A stretch of 64,000 nt of DNA, taken from assembly GCA_963804995.1 (NCBI GenBank), contig CAWDSK010000006.1, positions 2,048,001 to 2,112,000 of the forward strand, written 5' to 3'. Made by a program: the position numbers and the translations under genes. Source of the stretch: an uncultured Acidobacteriota bacterium (GTDB taxonomy: Bacteria; Acidobacteriota; Terriglobia; UBA7540). The notes below the pieces were generated by a model, which saw only the letters and a program-made list of their open reading frames with translations, was not told where the DNA came from and searched no databases. Of this stretch, positions 12,401-62,194 are shown in pieces (position 1 is the stretch's first letter; each line of letters opens with the position of its first letter).

Positions 12401-12518
12401 GTCCGCCCGGAACACCCTTCTCCTGCCGCATGTACGGCGTAGCGGTTGCGGTAGGGATACCGGTTACCCGGTACCCCCCGCACGGATCCGTACGTGCGCT
12501 GGTTAGCGCATACGGCTC

Positions 12519-13955
12519 TTATCTCGGATGTGTGGCGGCGAACCGTTGGGATGGCCAAGGATGCACAACGTGCGGAGCAGGCAACCAGCAGGCCGCAAGC
12601 TTCCCCAGTCGGTCCCAGTTGAGGCGGTGGCGTTGACTGCGTTGACGCAGTTGTGTTCGCCACAGTCGGGTCAACCGTTCCCGAAAGATTCGCAGGCGGT
12701 CGAGGTTTCCCGGTACCGCGTGATAGTTGAAGTAGCCTTGCACGACCGACCGGAGCCATTTACCCGTATCCGCGATGGGATCGTGCCGACGCTGCCGGAG
12801 TTGTTGCTTGAGTTCCTGCAACTTCCCCCGCAGGCGCTTGCTGATCGTCTTCCGCTTCACGGTAAATTGCCCCCTCCGGTTCTTCCCGCTGATATGCGTG
12901 AAGCCCAGAAAGTCGAACGTCTCCGGCTTACCTTCTCCTCTCCGTTTCCGGTAAAGTTCGGCAAACGGCCCGAACTCGATCCGGCGCGTTTTGTCAGGAT
13001 GCAGTTCCAATCCAAACTTCCCCACCCGCTCCCGGAAATCCTCCAGAAAGCGGTCGGCTTCCGTCTGCGATTGGAATCCAAGGACCGTATCGTCGGCATA
13101 CCGCACCACGACCACGTCTCCCCGGGCGTGCTTCTTGCGCCACGCCTGCACCCACAGGTCAAAGACGTAGTGCAGATAGATATTCGCCAGCAGGGGCGAG
13201 ACCACCGCCCCTTGTGGCGTACCCATCTCCGTCTCCGACCATTCGCCTTCCTCCCTCACCCCGGCTTTCAGCCATTTCTGGATGAGCCGGAGAATCCGGG
13301 GGTCGGCGACGCGATGCTGCACGAACTTGAGCATCCATTCGTGGGATATCGAATCGAAAAATCCACGAATGTCCGCGTCAAGAACGTAGTTCACGTGCTT
13401 CACCGTGAGCGCGTACGAGAGCGCGTCCAGCGCTTGATGCTGGCTGCATCCCGGTCGAAAGCCATACGAGAAGCCCAGAAAGTCTTCCTCGTAAATCGCA
13501 TTGAGGATGGTGACCACGGCCTGTTGGACGATCTTGTCCTCCAGTGCCGCAACCCCCAACGGACGTTGCCGCCCGTCGCCTTTCGGGATATACGCCCTTC
13601 GCGAGGGCTTCGCTCGGAATGCTCCGCGGTGGACCCGGCTGTGCAGATCGACGAGTCGACCTTCCAGCCCGCTTTCATACTCCTGCCACGTCATGCCGTC
13701 TACTCCCGGTGCAGCTTTTCGCTTCAAGGCGTAAAAGCTTTCCCGCAGCAGATCGACCGTTAAGTGGTGGAGCAAGGCCGTGAACTTCATCTCCCTGTGT
13801 TCCTTCGCGGCTTTCCGCACACCCGCGAGTCCCTGGGACACGCGTGCCCCGCTCTGTGTCGGGTGCGTGTTAGGCCAACGGGTGTTCTCCTTGATCAGCG
13901 GCCTTCCCTCCTCATTCTCCGCCAACGGCTTCCCGTCTTTGTTCAAATGATTCAT
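12519..13955 (-). CDS. ltrA: Group II intron reverse transcriptase/maturase, no En domain; resembles bacterial class E
   Basis: 'APGVDG', 'YIPKGDGRQRPLG', 'SYGFRPG', 'GTPQG', 'RYADD', 'FDFLGF' motifs and maturase X region; stop codon abuts domain V. Confidence 0.95.
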   Translation of the reverse strand: MNHLNKDGKPLAENEEGRPLIKENTRWPNTHPTQSGARVSQGLAGVRKAAKEHREMKFTALLHHLTVDLLRESFYALKRKAAPGVDGMTWQEYESGLEGRLVDLHSRVHRGAFRAKPSRRAYIPKGDGRQRPLGVAALEDKIVQQAVVTILNAIYEEDFLGFSYGFRPGCSQHQALDALSYALTVKHVNYVLDADIRGFFDSISHEWMLKFVQHRVADPRILRLIQKWLKAGVREEGEWSETEMGTPQGAVVSPLLANIYLHYVFDLWVQAWRKKHARGDVVVVRYADDTVLGFQSQTEADRFLEDFRERVGKFGLELHPDKTRRIEFGPFAELYRKRRGEGKPETFDFLGFTHISGKNRRGQFTVKRKTISKRLRGKLQELKQQLRQRRHDPIADTGKWLRSVVQGYFNYHAVPGNLDRLRIFRERLTRLWRTQLRQRSQRHRLNWDRLGKLAACWLPAPHVVHPWPSQRFAATHPR

Positions 13956-14170
13956 CGGTACTGTTCCGCTGTCCGACTCCTCGAAAGCGTGCAGGCGGGC
14001 TGTACGGCCATCGCCTTTTCCCGCCGTCCGGCCACGATCTACGGCGGCCGGCGCCTCCGAGGTCTCCCGGTTCTCGTGCAGAAAGTGTCTAGGCGTGTCT
14101 GGGGTCTACGACTACGCAGGACTGTGCCGGAACTCGCGTTGGCGTCCCGGCCTCATGTTGCCTTCCGTTT

Positions 14171-14176
14171 AGTCTG
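14171..14176 (-). other. Candidate EBS1 (CAGACU) of the intron
   Basis: Loop of GCCGACGUUUU-CAGACU-AAACGGAAGGC; pairs with GGUCUG, the last 6 nt of the 5' exon at both insertion sites. Confidence 0.75.
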
Positions 14177-14611
14177 AAAACGTCGGCGTCCTGATTGGAC
14201 ATTTTCGAAGCTCAATACCCAGCCCACCTATTCCCCTGTTTACGCTTCACCGTGCGCCTCACGACGCCCAGCGCAAAACTCGGGGCCGAGTGGATCGCTG
14301 CTCCTTCCTCGTGAGAAATTTTCATTCTCTGCTTTCTGCCGGTTTATCCCGGCGCACCAGACCTCCGCCGTTGAGGTCTGCGGCTCTTCGTATGTCATCG
14401 GAGCGAATGGTGGGTGGCGAAGAACCAGCCTTTCAAACCAAGAACCGCGGCCCCCAAAACCGGGGGACCGCGCTACGAAACATCGCCGCCGGTAGCGGGG
14501 AAGCCTTGCGGCAGGCGGTCGGCAGTAACCACTGGCGCTGGCCCAAGCCGAACGGTTGCCGCGGCGACCCCTACGATGTGCGCGAAAATTCTTGTTGTTA
14601 AACACACCTTT

Positions 14612-23781: not shown

Positions 23782-24084
23782 ATGAATCAAGCCTTAGGGA
23801 TGATTGAGACGAGAGGGCTGGTGGCCTTGATGGAAGCCACCGACGCCATGTTGAAGGCCGCCAACGTTACCTTTGCCCACTGGGAACCGGTGGGCTCGGG
23901 GCTGGTCACGGCTTTCGTAGAGGGTGATGTGGCCGCCGTCAAGGCCGCTATCGACGCCGGGGCCGAAGCTGCCTCACGCTTGGGTGAAGTGGTAAGCGTG
24001 CAGGTGATTCCCCACCCGCACGAGGATCTGAGCATCTTCACGGAGCCGCCCACGGAATCGGGAACAACCAAGAAGGCGGCCTGA
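23782..24084 (+). CDS. BMC-H shell hexamer
   Basis: '[26 protein letters not shown]...GDVAAVKAA...VIPHPH'. Confidence 0.95.
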
Positions 24085-24105
24085 GAGGCCACCAAGGAGA
24101 AGGTC

Positions 24106-24375
24106 ATGAATCAAGCATTGGGATTACTTGAAACCAAGGGATTGGTGGGGCTCGTGGACGCGAGCGACGCCATGTGCAAGGCCGCCAACGTCCAACTGGT
24201 CAAAATGATTCAGATTGGCGGCGGCTACGTCACCACCATTGTGCGTGGCGACGTGGGCAGCGTGCGAGCGGCGATTGATGCCGGAGCCGCGGCGGCGAAG
24301 GCCCTGGGTGAACTGGTGGCGGCGCACGTGATCGCTCGCCCGCATGAAGGGGTCTCGGAAGGTTACTTGAAGTAA
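24106..24375 (+). CDS. BMC-H shell hexamer
   Basis: 'ALGLLETKG...QIGGGYV...GDVGSVRAA...HVIARPH'. Confidence 0.95.
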   Translation: MNQALGLLETKGLVGLVDASDAMCKAANVQLVKMIQIGGGYVTTIVRGDVGSVRAAIDAGAAAAKALGELVAAHVIARPHEGVSEGYLK

Positions 24376-24400
24376 GGCGTTTCGGGTTCCGGTGGTAGGA

Positions 24401-24473
24401 TCGAAACTCGAAATTCGAAACTCGAAAATCGGCGACTCGCCCACGAGTTTCGAATTTCGAGTTTCGAGTTTCG
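24401..24473. repeat. Inverted TCGAAA(C/T) heptamer tandem-repeat hairpin
   Basis: tcgaaac tcgaaat tcgaaac tcgaaaa ... tcgaatt tcgagtt tcgagtt tcg. Confidence 0.85.
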
Positions 24474-24506
24474 TTCTCTCCCCGGCGCCTGGCAAAGGAG
24501 AATCCG

Positions 24507-24779
24507 ATGGTACAGCAAGCAATTGGAATGATTGAGACGCGTGGATTGGTGGCGCTGGTGCAAGCCACTGACGCCATGTTGAAAGCGGCCAACGTGCAGT
24601 TCAAAGGCTGGAGAAAGATCGGTGGAGGGCTCTGCACCAGCTTCGTCGGTGGCGACGTGGCAGCGGTGAAAGCCGCGGTTGACGCAGGCGCTGTCGCCGC
24701 CAAAAACGTTGGTCAAGTGGTCAGCGTCCAGGTAATCCCCCGCCCGCACGACGATCTGGGCGCGATTTTACCGGAATAA
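24507..24779 (+). CDS. BMC-H shell hexamer
   Basis: 'AIGMIETRG...KIGGGLC...VIPRPH'. Confidence 0.95.
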
Positions 24780-24805
24780 CGCAAAGCTCGATGGAAGGTG
24801 CGGCC

Positions 24806-25102
24806 ATGTTCCTGGCCAAAGTAATAGGCAATGTTGTTTCGAGTCATAAGAACGCCCGCTTCCAGGGTATGAAGCTGCTGTTGATTCAGCCCTACGTTAC
24901 GCGCGAGGGCAAGCTGGTGGAATCCGGAAGCTCAGTGGTGGCGGTCGATAGCGTAGGTGCGGGCGAAAGCGAACTGGTGATGTTCACCCAGGGAAGTTCC
25001 GCGCGTCTGACCGACACCACCAAGGACTGCCCTGTCGATACGGTCATCATCGGCATCGTGGACACCGTACAAGTGGCGGGCCAGCGGCTGGAAAAACCCT
25101 AG
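24806..25102 (+). CDS. BMC-P vertex protein (EutN/CcmL family)
   Basis: 'MFLAKVIGNVVSSHK...VAVDSVGAG...GSSAR...DTVIIGIVD'. Confidence 0.95.
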   Translation: MFLAKVIGNVVSSHKNARFQGMKLLLIQPYVTREGKLVESGSSVVAVDSVGAGESELVMFTQGSSARLTDTTKDCPVDTVIIGIVDTVQVAGQRLEKP

Positions 25103-25134
25103 TGCGGTAGTTTGAGGTCGGCGGCCAAGAGTTA

Positions 25135-25207
25135 TCGAAACTCGAAAATCGAAATTCGAAACTCGCGAGCGTTCCACCGATTTCCGAGTTCCGACTTTCG
25201 AGTTTCG
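25135..25207. repeat. Inverted TCGAAA heptamer tandem-repeat hairpin
   Basis: Same family as 24401-24473. Confidence 0.8.
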
Positions 25208-25254
25208 GTACGGGCTGCTGACTCCTGGATTCTGGTGTTACAGAGGCTTGGCAA

Positions 25255-26700: not shown

Positions 26701-27066
26701 ATGTTCATTGCCCGCATCGACGGATCGATTACCTCCACGGTCAAACACCCGAGCTTGCGAAGCCAGCGCTTGTTGATCGGCCAGAGGCTGGAAGCGGATG
26801 GTAATGAGGTGGGTGAACCCATCGTGCTGCTTGACGATCTGGGCGCGGGGTTGGGTTCCCAGGTGCTGGTTACAACCGACGGAGACCTGGCAAGACAGAA
26901 ATTGGGGGACAACACCACCCCAACACGCATGATCGTGGTGGGGATCATTGATCGCAATCCCCAAACCGGATGTTCTGAGTCTTCCGTCACCCATTCGAAA
27001 CTCGAAAATCGAAAAACGAAAATCGCGCCGAGTTTCGAGCTTCGAGTTTCGAATTTCGATTTGTAA
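26701..27066 (+). CDS. BMC-P vertex protein (EutN/CcmL) with repeat-derived C-terminal tail
   Basis: 'MFIARIDGSITSTVKH...DDLGAGLG...VVGIID'; last ~23 codons overlap a TCGAAA heptamer hairpin (26994-27062). Confidence 0.9.
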   Translation: MFIARIDGSITSTVKHPSLRSQRLLIGQRLEADGNEVGEPIVLLDDLGAGLGSQVLVTTDGDLARQKLGDNTTPTRMIVVGIIDRNPQTGCSESSVTHSKLENRKTKIAPSFELRVSNFDL

Positions 27067-27070
27067 GCGT

Positions 27071-27406
27071 ATGCGCCTGGGAATCGTTCGCGGAAATGTC
27101 GTGCTGAGCGTCTCGGATCCAAGCCTGGAGGGGACGCGATTCTTGATCGTCGAACCCGTGACCGGCGGGGCGCTCGCGGCTCAGGACGGATCGGGTGGCG
27201 GAAAGCAACTGATCGTCGCTGACCACCTGGGCCCCGCTGAGGGCGAGATGATTGCCTTCGTCGAAGGGCGGGAAGGCGCCAATCCTTACTGGCCCGGCCG
27301 GGCTCCGGTGGACGCCTATTGCAGCCTGCTGGTCAATACGGTGGACTACCACCCACCGGGTGCTGAGGCTGCAAAGGAAATCAGGCCGTCTTCTGGAAAA
27401 CGCTGA
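27071..27406 (+). CDS. BMC-P vertex protein (EutN/CcmL)
   Basis: 'MRLGIVRGNVVLS...DHLGPAEG...EGREGANPY...PVDAY'. Confidence 0.9.
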   Translation: MRLGIVRGNVVLSVSDPSLEGTRFLIVEPVTGGALAAQDGSGGGKQLIVADHLGPAEGEMIAFVEGREGANPYWPGRAPVDAYCSLLVNTVDYHPPGAEAAKEIRPSSGKR

Positions 27407-31716: not shown

Positions 31717-31870
31717 TCAGCACCACCCCGTCGCTCGGCCCCGATGATCAATTTGGAAAGAACACGCTATCGGCGCTCGGCGCGCCACCCCTCCTCATCA
31801 GAGGCGGGGAGTTCCGAAACAACTCCCCTCCTAATTTAGGAGGGGTGGCGCGCCGAGCGACGGGGTGGTT
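31717..31870. repeat. ACCACCCC/CCCCTCCT palindromic doublet with a nested 39-bp micro-insert
   Basis: Related to 57190-57351 and 62099-62194; insert at 31738-31776. Confidence 0.8.
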
Positions 31871-31967
31871 ACGATGGGTGGCGCCTTGGGCGCCGGGGTG
31901 GTTATTCCCTTGAGCATTTCCGCCGGGGTGGCTATCCGCAGTGAGGCGGCATTCATCCCGATCTGAT

Positions 31968-32009
31968 CGGGACGCCGCCATATGGCGAGGTAAACTCGCC
32001 GCTACGACA
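31968..32009 (-). repeat. GTAG-type REP (GTAGCGGCGAGTTTACCTCGCC)
   Basis: Identical to 42350-42391; related copy at 57085-57118. Confidence 0.85.
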
Positions 32010-32101
32010 CCGAATTGCCCCACAGCCTCGCCTTGACACGCCTGCAATTCGGCTGGTAGTGTCGTTATTTGGTAAGGCAGAATTCTGCGGAGTATCAGGC
32101 C

Positions 32102-32590: not shown

Positions 32591-33541
32591 TTGAAGAAAG
32601 CTATACTCATTTACAATCCGATTGCCGGGCGGCGTCCCGCCAAGCGCGTGCACGAAATCCGGCAAGCCGCCGCCGTGCTGTGCGACCACGGGATGGAGGT
32701 TGAACTGGCTCCTACGGAGCGGCCGGCCATGGCGCAGGATTTGGCGCAGGCCGCGGCCCGGCGGGGCTTCGACCTTGTCCTGGTTTGCGGCGGCGATGGG
32801 ACCATTAACGAAGTTATTAATGGACTCGCGCCCAGTCCCATTCCCTTGGGCATACTTCCGGGCGGCACCGCCAACATCCTCGCCAAGGAGTTGCGTCTCC
32901 CTCACAATCCCGTAAACGCAGCTCGCCAACTCCTCGGCTGGTCGCCGCGACGCATCGCGCTGGGGCGGGCCCGTTGGGTGGGCGCCCAGTCCCCGCCGGA
33001 GAACGGCCATCGCAGCGCCGAGGCATGCTTCCGGTATTACGCCAGCGTGGCGGGAATTGGTTTTGACGCGCACATCGTCTACAAGCTTTCTTCCAAACTT
33101 AAGGGGGACTTTGGTGTGGCCGGCTATGTGCTGGAGGCTTTACGCCAGCTCGTGCGCTACTCCTTCCCTAAGTTCTCCTGGCGGCTCGACGGCCACGAGT
33201 ACCAAGGCACGTTTGCCGTCGTGCATCGCACTCGACTCTATGCCGGCTGGCTGCATATGGCGCCCACGGCCGACCTGTTTTCGCCGCGCTTCGCCGTGTG
33301 TTCGTTCCCGAGCCGCAGCCGCCTGCGGTACCTGGTTTACGCCCTGGCCGTGCTGGCGCGCCAGCACTTGCGATTGAGCGACGTCACGCTTCACGAGGGT
33401 ACTCCCGTGGACTGTTCCCCCGGGGACTCCTCCACGCCGGTGCGCTTTGAGCTGGACGGGGAACTTGTCGGCACGCTGCCCGTCACCTTTGAGATCGTTC
33501 CGGATGCGCTGACGGTGCTGATGCCGGAAGGGAGGAGCTAG
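32591..33541 (+). CDS. Diacylglycerol/lipid kinase family protein (YegS/BmrU)
   Basis: 'IYNPIAG', 'GGDGTINEVING', 'LPGGTAN', 'GIGFDA', 'LDGE'. Confidence 0.92.
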   Translation: MKKAILIYNPIAGRRPAKRVHEIRQAAAVLCDHGMEVELAPTERPAMAQDLAQAAARRGFDLVLVCGGDGTINEVINGLAPSPIPLGILPGGTANILAKELRLPHNPVNAARQLLGWSPRRIALGRARWVGAQSPPENGHRSAEACFRYYASVAGIGFDAHIVYKLSSKLKGDFGVAGYVLEALRQLVRYSFPKFSWRLDGHEYQGTFAVVHRTRLYAGWLHMAPTADLFSPRFAVCSFPSRSRLRYLVYALAVLARQHLRLSDVTLHEGTPVDCSPGDSSTPVRFELDGELVGTLPVTFEIVPDALTVLMPEGRS

Positions 33542-33650
33542 AAGTTAGGAGTTAGAAGTTAGAGGTGAGAAGAAAGCCTGCTTGATTCTAGCTTGTGACG
33601 CTTACCTTCTAGCTTCTACCTCCTAGCTTCTAACTTCTAACTCCTGGATT
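33539..33650. repeat. Inverted TAGAAG(T/C) heptamer tandem-repeat hairpin
   Basis: tagaagt taggagt tagaagt ... gcttcta cctccta gcttcta acttcta; same family at 39825-40021. Confidence 0.8.
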
Positions 33651-33654
33651 CTTC

Positions 33655-34671: not shown

Positions 34672-34700
34672 ATCAGCCATCGGATCATCGCTGGCTGGCG

Positions 34701-36613
34701 GTTGCGGTAGGGATACCGGTTACCCGGTACCCCCCGCACGGATCCGTACGTGCGCTGGTTAGCGCATACGGCTCTTATCTCGGATGTGTGGCGGCGAACC
34801 GTTGGGATGGCCAAGGATGCACAACGTGCGGAGCAGGCAACCAGCAGGCCGCAAGCTTCCCCAGTCGGTCCCAGTTGAGGCGGTGGCGTTGACTGCGTTG
34901 ACGCAGTTGTGTTCGCCACAGTCGGGTCAACCGTTCCCGAAAGATTCGCAGGCGGTTGAGGTTTCCCGGTACCGCGTGATAGTTGAAGTAGCCTTGCACG
35001 ACCGACCGGAGCCATTTACCCGTATCCGCGATGGGATCGTGCCGACGCTGCCGGAGTTGTTGCTTGAGTTCCTGCAACTTCCCCCGCAGGCGCTTGCTGA
35101 TCGTCTTCCGCTTCACGGTAAATTGCCCCCTCCGGTTCTTCCCGCTGATATGCGTGAAGCCCAGAAAGTCGAACGTCTCCGGCTTACCTTCTCCTCTCCG
35201 TTTCCGGTAAAGTTCGGCAAACGGCCCGAACTCGATCCGGCGCGTTTTGTCAGGATGCAGTTCCAATCCAAACTTCCCCACCCGCTCCCGGAAATCCTCC
35301 AGAAAGCGGTCGGCTTCCGTCTGCGATTGGAATCCAAGGACCGTATCGTCGGCATACCGCACCACGACCACGTCTCCCCGGGCGTGCTTCTTGCGCCACG
35401 CCTGCACCCACAGGTCAAAGACGTAGTGCAGATAGATATTCGCCAGCAGGGGCGAGACCACCGCCCCTTGTGGCGTACCCATCTCCGTCTCCGACCATTC
35501 GCCTTCCTCCCTCACCCCGGCTTTCAGCCATTTCTGGATGAGCCGGAGAATCCGGGGGTCGGCGACGCGATGCTGCACGAACTTGAGCATCCATTCGTGG
35601 GATATCGAATCGAAAAATCCACGAATGTCCGCGTCAAGAACGTAGTTCACGTGCTTCACCGTGAGCGCGTACGAGAGCGCGTCCAGCGCTTGATGCTGGC
35701 TGCATCCCGGTCGAAAGCCATACGAGAAGCCCAGAAAGTCTTCCTCGTAAATCGCCTTGAGGATGGTGACCACGGCCTGTTGGACGATCTTGTCCTCCAG
35801 TGCCGCAACCCCCAACGGACGTTGCCGCCCGTCGCCTTTCGGGATATACGCCCTTCGCGAGGGCTTCGCTCGGAATGCTCCGCGGTGGACCCGGCTGTGC
35901 AGATCGACGAGTCGACCTTCCAGCCCGCTTTCATACTCCTGCCACGTCATGCCGTCTACTCCCGGTGCAGCTTTTCGCTTCAAGGCGTAAAAGCTTTCCC
36001 GCAGCAGATCGACCGTTAAGTGGTGGAGCAAGGCCGTGAACTTCATCTCCCTGTGTTCCTTCGCGGCTTTCCGCACACCCGCGAGTCCCTGGGACACGCG
36101 TGCCCCGCTCTGTGTCGGGTGCGTGTTAGGCCAACGGGTGTTCTCCTTGATCAGCGGCCTTCCCTCCTCATTCTCCGCCAACGGCTTCCCGTCTTTGTTC
36201 AAATGATTCATCGGTACTGTTCCGCTGTCCGACTCCTCGAAAGCGTGCAGGCGGGCTGTACGGCCATCGCCTTTTCCCGCCGTCCGGCCACGATCTACGG
36301 CGGCCGGCGCCTCCGAGGTCTCCCGGTTCTCGTGCAGAAAGTGTCTAGGCGTGTCTGGGGTCTACGACTACGCAGGACTGTGCCGGAACTCGCGTTGGCG
36401 TCCCGGCCTCATGTTGCCTTCCGTTTAGTCTGAAAACGTCGGCGTCCTGATTGGACATTTTCGAAGCTCAATACCCAGCCCACCTATTCCCCTGTTTACG
36501 CTTCACCGTGCGCCTCACGACGCCCAGCGCAAAACTCGGGGCCGAGTGGATCGCTGCTCCTTCCTCGTGAGAAATTTTCATTCTCTGCTTTCTGCCGGTT
36601 TATCCCGGCGCAC
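34701..36613 (-). mobile_element. Group II intron, copy 2 (1913 bp), inserted in a REP hairpin
   Basis: Near-identical to 12445-14357 with the same ends. Confidence 0.95.
34775..36211 (-). CDS. ltrA: Group II intron reverse transcriptase/maturase
   Basis: 478 aa; two residue differences from copy 1 seen (TILN/TILK, GNLD/GNLN). Confidence 0.95.
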   Translation of the reverse strand: MNHLNKDGKPLAENEEGRPLIKENTRWPNTHPTQSGARVSQGLAGVRKAAKEHREMKFTALLHHLTVDLLRESFYALKRKAAPGVDGMTWQEYESGLEGRLVDLHSRVHRGAFRAKPSRRAYIPKGDGRQRPLGVAALEDKIVQQAVVTILKAIYEEDFLGFSYGFRPGCSQHQALDALSYALTVKHVNYVLDADIRGFFDSISHEWMLKFVQHRVADPRILRLIQKWLKAGVREEGEWSETEMGTPQGAVVSPLLANIYLHYVFDLWVQAWRKKHARGDVVVVRYADDTVLGFQSQTEADRFLEDFRERVGKFGLELHPDKTRRIEFGPFAELYRKRRGEGKPETFDFLGFTHISGKNRRGQFTVKRKTISKRLRGKLQELKQQLRQRRHDPIADTGKWLRSVVQGYFNYHAVPGNLNRLRIFRERLTRLWRTQLRQRSQRHRLNWDRLGKLAACWLPAPHVVHPWPSQRFAATHPR

Positions 36614-36838
36614 CAGACCCTAGTTCTTGGGGGTCTGCGATGCCCTGAAGGGACAGGTAAGAGCTGATAACTCATCCCCGTGGTGATGAATTGCTGGAGA
36701 CCAGGACTGTAAGTGGGTTTCGGAATTCTACTGGAGAACTTATCTCAAGATTGACCTTTGGGAATAGTTTCCCTTTGGGACATCGCAGACCCCAAGGTAC
36801 AGGGGTCTGCGCCATCCAGCGGCTTCTTCATTGGCTTC

Positions 36839-38810: not shown

Positions 38811-39815
38811 ATGGCAATGATGACTTATCGTGAAGCCCTTAACCAGGCGATGCGCGAGGAAATGCATCGCGACGAGACCGTGGTGCTGATGGGCGAGGAA
38901 GTGGGCTTCTACCAGGGCGCTTACAAGGTCAGCAAAGGACTGCTCGATGAGTTCGGGCCCATGCGGGTGCTCGACACTCCCATCACGGAGCTGGGCTTTA
39001 CGGGGCTCGGCGTGGGCGCGGCGATGGTAGGCGTGCGGCCCATCGTCGAGATGATGACCTTCAACTTCTCGATGTTGGCGCTCGACCAGATCGTGAATAG
39101 CGCGGCGAAAATGCTCTACATGTCAGGCGGGCAGTTTCCCATTCCCATGGTGATTCGCGGTCCCGGAGGCGCCGCGCACCAGCTTGCCGCGCAGCACTCG
39201 CAGTCGCTGGAATCGTGGTTCTGCCACGTTCCCGGCTTGAAGGTGGTGGCACCCTCTACCCCGGCTGACGCGAAGGGCTTACTCAAGACTTCGGTTCGTG
39301 ACAATAACCCAGTGATCTTCATCGAGTCGGAAGTGCTGTACGGGACGCGTGGCGACGTTCCCGAGGGGGATTACCTCATTCCGCTGGGCGTGGCTGACAT
39401 CAAACGCCCCGGCCGCGACGTGACCATCATCGCGCACTCGAAGATGGTGCTGCTGGCGCTCGATGCTGCCGCGGATCTGGCAAAGGAAGGTATCGAGGCT
39501 GAGGTGGTGGACCCGCGCACGCTGCGCCCGCTCGATACCGAGACTATTTTGAACTCCGTAAAGAAGACGAATCGCGTGGTGATTGTCGAGGAAGGCTGGC
39601 CTTACTGCGGAGTGGGCGCGCAGTTTGTGGATACGATCCAGCACGCCGCGTTCGATTACCTCGATGCGCCCATCCTGCGGGTGACCGGTGTCGACGTCCC
39701 CATGCCCTACGCGAAGAACCTGGAACACCTTGCGCAGCCTGATAAACAGCGCGTCAAAGACGCCGTTTACCGCGTGCTCTACCGGCAAGGAGTCGGGGCG
39801 CAAGGGCATGCGTAG
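38811..39815 (+). CDS. pdhB: Pyruvate dehydrogenase E1 beta
   Basis: 'GEEVGFYQGAYKVS', 'DTPITE', 'AAQHSQ', 'DVPMPYA'. Confidence 0.95.
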   Translation: MAMMTYREALNQAMREEMHRDETVVLMGEEVGFYQGAYKVSKGLLDEFGPMRVLDTPITELGFTGLGVGAAMVGVRPIVEMMTFNFSMLALDQIVNSAAKMLYMSGGQFPIPMVIRGPGGAAHQLAAQHSQSLESWFCHVPGLKVVAPSTPADAKGLLKTSVRDNNPVIFIESEVLYGTRGDVPEGDYLIPLGVADIKRPGRDVTIIAHSKMVLLALDAAADLAKEGIEAEVVDPRTLRPLDTETILNSVKKTNRVVIVEEGWPYCGVGAQFVDTIQHAAFDYLDAPILRVTGVDVPMPYAKNLEHLAQPDKQRVKDAVYRVLYRQGVGAQGHA

Positions 39816-39824
39816 GAGAGGATC

Positions 39825-40021
39825 GAAGTTAGAAGTTAGGAGCTAGGAGTCAGAAGCTAGAACTTAGAAACTGGAATCCAGAACTCAGGATTCAGAAACG
39901 AGCGGCGCAGATCATTCGGACCGGCGCAAATTCTCGCCGTCTAAAATGACGAGGAAACCGGGGGGCAAAGGCAGGCGGGATGCTTGCATTCTAGCTCCTA
40001 ACTCCTGGCTCCTAACTTCTA
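39825..40021. repeat. Inverted TAGAAG heptamer repeat element between pdhB and pdhC
   Basis: gaagtta gaagtta ggagcta ggagtca ... tagctcc taactcc tggctcc taacttc. Confidence 0.75.
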
Positions 40022-40058
40022 GATCCCTGCTCCTTTACTTACAAAATGAGGGTTCCCA

Positions 40059-43792: not shown

Positions 43793-43996
43793 CTGGCGCA
43801 GACCCCGGCTCTTTGGGGTCTGCGATGCCACGAAGAGGCAGTGATGAATTGCGCGTCACACGAGGGGTATAGAATTGTCGTTAGGTGGACGATAAATGCG
43901 CTTGTAGAAGCGTATGGCTCGTTTCACTCTAAACACTGGCCGGGATGGTGTCCATGCGGGACATCGCAGACCCCCAAGAACCGGGGTCTGCGCCAG
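43793..43996. repeat. Intact 204-bp REP doublet of the intron-target family
   Basis: CTGGCGCAGACCCCGGCTCTTTGGGGTCTGCGATG ... CATCGCAGACCCCCAAGAACCGGGGTCTGCGCCAG. Confidence 0.9.
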
Positions 43997-56952: not shown

Positions 56953-57084
56953 ATTCCCTTCTTTCACCCAGGTTGCCCGCGGCAGACTCGGCCGTGGTGG
57001 CACTACTCGGGATGTTACATTACATTTAACATCATACTCCTAAACGTCCCATCTTGGCACTTCCTGAATTAAACGTTTGATGTT

Positions 57085-57118
57085 GTAGCGGCGAGTTTAC
57101 CTCGCCATAGGGCGGCGT
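57085..57118 (+). repeat. GTAG-type REP (GTAGCGGCGAGTTTACCTCGCC)
   Basis: Matches the 31968/42350 family. Confidence 0.8.
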
Positions 57119-57189
57119 AAAGCTAGACTTGTCCAGATTAGCGAAGCCTTCGAGTGGTCAACGTGGCTCTGCCTCCTGTCATGAAAAAG

Positions 57190-57351
57190 CTCCCCTCCTC
57201 AGATGAGGAGGGGTGGCGCGCCGAGCGCCGGGGTGGTGCTGATGCTTGCCACACGCCGCCCGGCGGATCGAATAACCACCCCGTCGCTATCAGGTGCTCG
57301 CGTAACCACCCCGTCGCCTTCGGCGCCACCCCTCCTAAATCAGGAGGGGAG
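57190..57351. repeat. CCCCTCCT/ACCACCCC palindromic doublet
   Basis: ctcccctcctcagatgaggaggggtggcgcgccgagcgccggggtggt ... accaccccgtcgccttcggcgccacccctcctaaatcaggaggggag. Confidence 0.8.
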
Positions 57352-57458
57352 TTACCCCGCCCATTTTCATCATCAGTGGCGCTCCGAAAGAGAATGGGCG
57401 TCTGTGCGGAAGAGTTATGCCCTTCCGGGTTCGCCCCCAGCGCCTTCGCATGCTGAAT

Positions 57459-61997: not shown

Positions 61998-62098
61998 AGG
62001 GGAGGGCACTCCTCGACAGGCATGGTAGCCTCAGGAGGGGCGTTTGTCAAAAAGGTAATGGTCACATCGCCATCAGGCGCGACCTCGTATCGAAAACA

Positions 62099-62194
62099 AC
62101 TCCCCCGCTCGGGTGAGGTGGGGTGGCGCGCCGAGCCCCGATAGCGCGTTCTTTCCAAATTGATCATCGGGGCCGAGCGCCGGGGTGGTGCTGA
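62099..62194. repeat. ACCACCCC-family repeat with 39-bp micro-insert
   Basis: Reverse-complement match to 31717-31813; insert at 62135-62173. Confidence 0.8.

Follow-up and report, generated by a model that had tools for sequence, protein, structure and literature searches.

An endonuclease-less group II intron, which its sequence places in class E and not in class C, is present in 40 copies in the genome of an uncultured Acidobacteriota bacterium (G000), and at all 38 copies with a readable 5' flank this flank is the 3' arm of a single family of REP hairpins. The explanation that we consider probable is class E retrohoming at the replication fork, with guides matched to one strand of the REP and protein contacts on its loop and foot. 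Insertion site, intron class, guide pairings, strand bias and the link to RAYT genes are drawn here from sequence comparison; fork priming and the protein contacts are modelled on work on RmInt1, and splicing is presumed.

The window, that is, the whole 64,000-nt stretch of DNA analysed, contains two of the copies. Their features, and those of the surrounding REPs, are the following.

12445-14357, minus strand: group II intron copy 1, 1,913 nt, assigned to class E, GUGCG...GCAAC ends at 14357 and 12445
12519-13955, minus strand: RT/maturase ORF of copy 1, 478 aa, YADD, without endonuclease domain, in the class E clade with S.me.I4
12485-12518, minus strand: domain V, 34 nt, AGC triad, non-GNRA loop
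14171-14176, minus strand: EBS1 CAGACU, intron nt 182-187, from covariation, in a 7-nt loop of the MFE fold
14198-14201, minus strand: EBS2 UGUC, intron nt 157-160, short and weak, from covariation
14109, minus strand: EBS3 (G249), pairing with C+1, from covariation
12439-12444, plus strand: foot (GTAG) and stem base of copy 1's invaded REP (3' exon side)
14358-14382, plus strand: remainder of copy 1's REP hairpin, subfamily A; 5' exon, with IBS1 at 14358-14363 and IBS2 in the loop
14447-14476, plus strand: inverted, degenerate partner hairpin of copy 1's doublet, empty
34701-36613, minus strand: group II intron copy 2, ORF at 34775-36211
34691-34700, plus strand: foot (GCTGGCTGGCG) and stem base of copy 2's invaded REP, subfamily B
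36614-36639, plus strand: remainder of copy 2's invaded REP hairpin
36785-36814, plus strand: inverted partner hairpin of copy 2's doublet, empty, target strand running anti-fork
43794-43995, no strand: empty doublet of REP subfamily B, hairpins at 43794-43823 and 43966-43995

The two copies differ at 2 of 1,913 positions, and both are matched by Rfam group-II-D1D4-6 at 170 bits (in copy 1 at 14102-14322); GUGCG...AAC termini are common to all full copies. Excision of copy 1 gives GTAGCG|CAGACCTC-CGCCGTT-GAGGTCTGCG and that of copy 2 gives CTGGCG|CAGACCC-TAGTTCTTGG-GGGTCTGCG, exactly as written in the original prediction, which was made from this DNA alone. The GTAG foot that it named for the REP holds for copy 1, whereas the foot at copy 2 is CTGG. 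Its description of each hairpin as one arm of an inverted doublet is correct for the window (partners at 14447-14476, with a degenerate stem, and at 36785-36814) but not genome-wide, where only 13 of the 35 filled hairpins have a strict inverted partner within 300 bp. The empty form of the copy 1 site (GTAGCG joined at 14358) is present in contigs of public run X1; among the contigs of the public runs none spans the locus, and the RNA contigs stem from relatives. Since a near-identical doublet and spacer to those at 14358-14476 recur at the RAYT locus on contig C5 (56330-56440), the doublet appears to be a dispersed, REPIN-like unit. Elsewhere in the window, three paralogous short genes (23782-24749, repeat family D4) may encode microcompartment shell proteins. 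Other intergenic palindrome or 7-mer repeat families, without this intron, lie at 24400-25210, 26995-27072, 33522-33652, 39813-40027, 31717-32021, 57076-57353 and 62094-62194.

The prediction that both introns occupy the same site of the same palindrome family extends to the whole genome. The 40 copies retrieved by BLAST share 99.7-100% identity; 39 are full or nearly full and one is cut by a contig end. The 37 ungapped full copies differ from one another by 3.4 nt on average and are identical at every EBS position, and 31 distinct sequences were counted among 37 copies. RGTCYG|CGCYA is found at the insertion site in all 37 copies with both flanks, and the junction, placed by the prediction at GGTCTG|CGC near the base of the 3' arm, was located 2 bp above the stem base. 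The contig ends of C2, C6, C7 and C9 fall within or beside intron copies, and at the end of C6 and the start of C7 neighbouring units of a tandem REP array are both invaded.

The target family comprises 270 foot-side hairpins in two subfamilies, A with a GTAG foot and a 7-nt loop and B with a CTGG foot and an 8-nt loop. REPs are recognized by a GC-rich palindrome that comes after a GT(A/G)G head (PMC2817692); the head is GTAG in subfamily A and CTGG in subfamily B. With about 270 hairpins the family exceeds 100 extragenic copies, and it forms doublets and arrays. These hairpins lie within 900 bp of two of the 14 Y1_Tnp matches in the genome, and both of these genes pass the NCBIfam REP_Tyr_transpos (NF047646) cut-off, one per subfamily: C6:722 kb with subfamily B, and C5:58 kb with subfamily A, whose downstream inverted copy is degenerate. 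Each of the two RAYT genes is flanked by these REPs in inverted orientation, and in each case a flanking REP contains an intron. Judged by sequence, the hairpin family fits the RAYT/REP layout described in PMC2817692. The idea of a non-IIC intron using an abundant intergenic REP as a multi-copy landing site is supported.

Site preference was scored on an intron-free copy of the genome, which has 5,168 RGTCYG|C sites with sufficient flank; sites with stems of 8/10 or better were counted as hairpins, and 36 filled sites remained once four copies at contig ends had been left out. Hairpin sites were filled in 35 of 727 cases against 1 of 4,441 elsewhere, and the sole filled non-hairpin site is a decayed member of the REP family with a 7/10 stem. 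The comparison against all GGTCTG|C sites that had been proposed as a check returned a single filled site among 1,171 outside hairpins. According to a rough gene model 35 of the 36 scored insertions are intergenic, the codon model calling 72% of the DNA coding, so that intergenic DNA is over-counted.

Fork orientation, assigned as described below, separates these sites further. Fork-oriented GGTCTG|CGCYA hairpins were filled in 25 of 52 cases, against 1 of 69 for the same hairpins running anti-fork. Only 3 of 52 fork-oriented GGTCCG hairpins, with one EBS1 mismatch and an intact stem, were filled. The opposite arm of the same hairpins, which has the same stem, IBS1 and IBS3 but lacks IBS2, with a reversed loop and differences at +3 to +5, was never filled when fork-oriented (0/75), nor was the fork-oriented hairpin variant CAGGTCCG, with its 5-nt loop (0/14). 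These results indicate that the hairpin is insufficient and that linear pairing matters. Pairing alone is also insufficient: one of 120 fork-oriented non-hairpin sites with IBS1, IBS2 and IBS3 was filled (intergenic 0/35), compared with 23 of 52 hairpins, which means that further specificity comes from protein contacts or from the hairpin. Protein contacts may be what supplies it. If an A-rich rule is added to the three pairings, 20 non-hairpin sites are left, one of them filled (intergenic 0/8), too small a sample for a decision. None of the 233 intergenic non-hairpin RGTCTG|C matches was filled. Filled hairpins have slightly stabler predicted folds than empty ones (-11.9 vs -11.1 kcal/mol, p 0.03). 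Inside the best subfamily the EBS2 match did not clearly separate filled from empty sites, and the orientation of the upstream gene had no predictive value for filling (15/30 same-strand, 8/20 opposite). A 10-copy non-hairpin repeat (C2:156769 of G000 and nine other places, in intron-free coordinates) carries GGTCTG|CGCCA without IBS2, and none of its copies is filled.

All 15 copies on C6 lie on the minus strand and all four on C5 on the plus strand; on C2 the copies change strand somewhere between 112 and 246 kb, in the region of dnaA (124 kb). Fork direction was taken from whole-contig skew, with C2 split at dnaA and six copies on C1 and C9 left out; on this basis intron and fork point the same way in 33 of the 34 copies that could be assigned (p 4e-9), the skew being weak and the rule having been fixed after the orientations were seen. 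Local 150-kb GC skew proved too noisy for strand calls (29/40) and was dropped. Empty hairpins occur on both strands. A copy running with the fork would therefore have inserted into the lagging-strand template, a preference known for endonuclease-less introns (PMC5894124), and a moderate strand bias has been reported for class E (PMC8919778).

The intron ORF of 478 aa is matched by TIGR04416 above cut-off (residues 70-438). RVT_1 is its only Pfam match, and neither HNH nor any other endonuclease domain was detected in the Pfam search, in agreement with the class-E-like, En-less protein first proposed. Its RT is 57% identical to a disrupted RT piece on pRmeGR4b, 34% to RmInt1 and RmInt2, and 31% to a class C intron of the same strain. 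Reference RTs were labelled by matching them to PMC5894124 by replicon and copy number, which makes the pRmeGR4b RT S.me.I4. In the tree, which has a single class E reference, the RT clusters with S.me.I4 (support 99/93), apart from the class D and C references. The class C reference sits on a long branch and the intron RT falls outside the class C clade; the RT phylogeny had been put forward as a check, and no grouping with IIC was seen. A class call by PDB sequence search was abandoned, as IIC, CL and ML RTs score alike. The closest named relatives (72-93% aa) are nearly all from Acidobacteriota.

Without the ORF the ribozyme measures 1,913 minus 1,437 = 476 nt, within the 450-700 nt given for class E (PMC3753933), and EBS1, EBS2 (short) and EBS3 were all found, as in IIB-like exon recognition. 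Domain V, in which an AGC triad had been noticed, measures 34 nt; class E is described with a 5-nt loop (PMC3753933), which S.me.I4 shows, whereas in the predicted fold here a U-A pair closes a 4-nt loop (AACC), which grows to 6 nt when this pair opens. IIC introns are marked by a CGC triad, a shortened domain V, an IBS1 of 3-4 bp, no EBS2 and a stem-loop upstream of IBS1 (PMC1702495). Here, the triad is AGC, domain V has 34 nt, EBS1 spans six positions, EBS2 covaries with the target and IBS1 is itself the 3' stem arm. Three other group II RT families, 31-37% identical to this one, are present in G000.

C9:154 kb: other RT family, 1 copy
C6:295-297 kb, C5:1087 and 1126 kb, C4:161 kb, C1:26 kb: other RT family, 6 copies
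C1:98 and 289 kb, C3:1126 kb: other RT family, 3 copies

EBS1 (nt 182-186) and EBS3 (G249) were located by testing domain I columns against exon positions in 51 related insertions, with an EBS3-exon complementarity of 92% against 67% expected. In a refined set of 51 rows, for which 5' ends had been corrected and each EBS1/EBS2 variant was represented once, EBS1 (182-187) was complementary to exon positions -1 to -6 in 82% of cells (30% when shuffled), and EBS2 (nt 157-160) formed Watson-Crick pairs with -9 to -12 in 49% (24% when shuffled). None of 2,000 shuffles reached either value, but the rows are kin and these are not probabilities. EBS1 CAGACU and IBS1 GGTCTG make five Watson-Crick pairs and one G.U, and the EBS2 partner falls inside the REP loop. 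UAGACCCC near nt 250 was rejected as EBS1, this segment being invariant in relatives with other targets. Using RNA energies, the exon stem (-12.2 and -10.1 kcal/mol) is stronger than the EBS1-IBS1 duplex (-6.3 kcal/mol), and the stem should hinder EBS1 because its 5' arm, CAGACC, is a DNA mimic of EBS1. The original prediction had likened this targeting to IIC hairpin guidance. In that form the likeness found no support, as IBS1 is the stem arm itself, the 6-nt EBS1 and EBS2 co-vary with targets, and equally good hairpins are skipped if linear pairing fails (the opposite arm and GGTCCG above). Many related class E introns start two bases early (GAAAGCG, GTAAGCG or GATAGCG, not GTGCG; L035, L036, L041, L048, L052, L043, L161, L180 and others), and their EBS1 pairing is restored only with the longer 5' end.

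Several related introns share the target. In G005 the intron (92% aa), whose EBS1 reads CGGACU, occupies six G[GTC]CCG sites that belong to the REP's CCG variant; five of the six copies lie in stems broken inside IBS1 while about seven perfect stems are empty, these being small numbers without strand assignment. In G043 (88%, EBS1 CAGACC), two of three copies are in perfect stems and the third (L187) is in a decayed-looking REP with a 2-nt bulge across IBS1 and is not counted as a clean non-hairpin case. The single copy in G002 is in a perfect stem. ORF-less versions of about 650 nt (L161, L180, L191, L225) were found in the same REP; ORF-less derivatives of 640-655 nt with varied EBS1 also occur at other sites (L054, L162, L194, L195, L197-L199), and such derivatives are likely mobilised in trans. 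Among metagenomes, 13 of 18 distinct introns with CRGACY guides lie in stems of at least 6/7, against a background of 16% for the RGTCYG|C sites of G000 and 2.8% for random positions, after 102 of 121 pattern matches without a recognisable intron 5' end were left out; L219 and L228 are clear non-hairpin cases. These two, together with L048 and L190, are same-guide relatives at non-hairpin sites.

Other guides go with other stems, namely CAUACU with TGTATG hairpins and CAGAGC with GCTCTG hairpins, the latter in a 61%-identical lineage, and in related introns of at least two lineages EBS1 changes together with the hairpin stem. Seven RTs associated with hairpins are not monophyletic (AU p 6e-5, for a test group picked after the first tree). 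Across the lineage, 81 of 115 distinct targets have no stem and are often other dispersed repeats; these 81 non-hairpin sites have 53-63% A at -12 to -14, close to where the REP loop opens with AA (-15/-14). Retargeting onto abundant repeats looks like a habit of the lineage. In relatives from Acidobacteriaceae the insertions fall within a single conserved motif some 30 bp long, at different positions and on either strand (L055-L058, L071-L074, L083, L087-L088, L091-L103, L107-L125). Close relatives (83-85% aa) with EBS1 AACUUC or AACUAC target a dispersed A-rich repeat ending in GAGTT or TAGTT (L003, L046, L053, L054, L166, L195), and G000 retains two 5' fragments of this type (C2:652257 and C1:206552). 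At C1:441114 it also holds a 5' fragment of a GATAGCG-type class E intron at the same position of a GCAGAGC...GCTCTG hairpin. In L102 and L198, intron copies are arranged head-to-tail, one inserted at the end of the other.

In the reading that we favour, the intron would be an active or recently active class E element, IIB-like and endonuclease-less, whose RNP would encounter the REP target at the replication fork, while it is single-stranded as lagging-strand template. EBS1 would pair with the 3' arm GGTCTG, EBS2 with two to four loop bases and EBS3 with C+1, and the protein would probably read nearby bases, the A-rich -12 to -15 and perhaps +2 to +5; RmInt1 reads -20 to +5 (PMC5894124). The RNA would reverse-splice and then be copied from a nascent-strand primer. 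The REP family offers considerably more than a hundred sites between genes, and the rise to 40 copies would follow from this abundance and from inverted doublets, which put one arm on the usable strand. The hairpin would account for the abundance of the sequence and need not be the recognised feature. Against a purely linear model stand the 13 of 18 same-guide metagenome introns in stems and the slightly stabler filled hairpins.

These observations bear on an alternative that we consider unlikely, in which an extruded REP hairpin is needed besides the pairings, either because EBS2 takes the loop as a toehold before EBS1 invades the 3' arm or because the protein docks on the stem; it would parallel the use of terminator or attC stems by class C introns. 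It would suit the confinement of all 38 readable 5' flanks to the hairpin family, the 35 intergenic pairing-complete non-hairpin sites that are all empty, the position of IBS2 in the loop, and the fact that hairpins form best on a single strand, the one the intron prefers. Insertion 2 bp above the stem base is also seen repeatedly, on unlike stems and in lineages that do not group as a single clade, although the AU test group was named after the first tree was seen. However, the 5' arm CAGACC should compete with EBS1 (-12.2 and -10.1 vs -6.3 kcal/mol), and relatives use non-hairpin sites, most lineage targets lacking a stem. The G005 copies in stems broken within IBS1 are a weak hint that the stem hinders EBS1, while the stability difference in G000 is a weak hint in the opposite direction. 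An extension of this alternative, that structure-assisted homing evolved at least twice in class E introns of this Acidobacteriota group, with the loop as EBS2 toehold, EBS1 displacing the 5'-arm mimic and guides tracking changing REP stems, is likewise doubtful.

It is very improbable that the pattern reflects survival, with insertion at many linear matches and selection purging all copies but those in harmless REPs. Nearly all scored insertions are indeed intergenic under the rough gene model, and most non-hairpin matches lie within genes; against this, intergenic non-hairpin matches are empty as well (RGTCTG|C 0/233; with IBS2 0/35), the opposite hairpin arm is equally harmless and never used, and the copies are young, with a mean of 3.4 differences. 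That one intron-bearing REP unit was multiplied by RAYT, recombination or mis-assembly, as the introns in REPs flanking two RAYT genes and the four contig ends in or beside copies might suggest, is hardly credible given the two subfamilies of flanks, which have different stems, loops and feet, the 31 distinct sequences counted in 37 copies, a 33/34 fork bias despite empty hairpins on both strands, and relatives that share the REP-insertion habit.

Several known systems come close to this one. The class E introns S.me.I4 and Cl.be.I2 (PMC5894124, PMC3753933, PMC3552965) share the RT clade, the lack of an endonuclease, EBS1/2/3 and the ribozyme size, but the accessible text of these papers describes neither a REP target nor a 40-copy burst into one repeat, and in the 34-nt domain V here the 5-nt loop is not clearly present. 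RmInt1 and RmInt2 of Sinorhizobium meliloti (PMC5894124, PMC4615759) are likewise endonuclease-less and home into the lagging-strand template; thanks to the inverted repeats of its IS targets, RmInt2 has one target on that strand in every case, and it tolerates a weak EBS2 (PMC4615759). Both differ in belonging to class D and in targeting IS elements, with 7-10 copies, whereas the target here is a host REP hairpin. Class C introns at terminators and IIC-attC introns (PMC1702495, PMC4424553) share hairpin insertion, fork bias and many harmless sites, but their stem lies upstream of IBS1, whereas the intron described here takes the stem arm itself as IBS1 and has an RT with 31% identity to theirs. 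IS1397, ISKpn1, IS621, ISPa11, ISPpu9/10 and ISRm22 each insert at one REP position (PMC1525189), as here, but these are mobilised by DNA transposases, and a table in the same paper lists a P. putida group II intron as REP-associated in only two of nine cases. A proposal that upstream secondary structure plays a part for non-IIC introns concerns IIB introns (CL1, class E) next to attC-like stems in integrons of halophiles (PMC7923331); these are three single, speculative cases, for which the accessible text gives no repeat family or occupancy test.

A review recognizes three target specificities of bacterial group II introns, namely homing sites, terminators and attC (PMC4424553), and we found no account of group II introns homing into REPs in searches of openly available full texts. 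REPs are already known as insertion-sequence targets; as an intron target class they are apparently undescribed, and we probably see an apparently new target class reached by a known mechanism. If structure-assisted homing were true, group II introns would have a fourth natural way of targeting, next to sequence homing, terminators and attC; the ORF-less derivatives would have it too, and it may damp the spread of RAYT/REP. The case is quantitative, about half of the best fork-oriented sites being filled, and provides a ready library of filled and empty natural targets for asking whether a non-IIC intron reads DNA structure. It also gives an example of guide RNAs co-evolving with a host repeat and an explanation for the unusual class E burst, and the 40 homologous 1.9-kb blocks in the chromosome are substrates for recombination.
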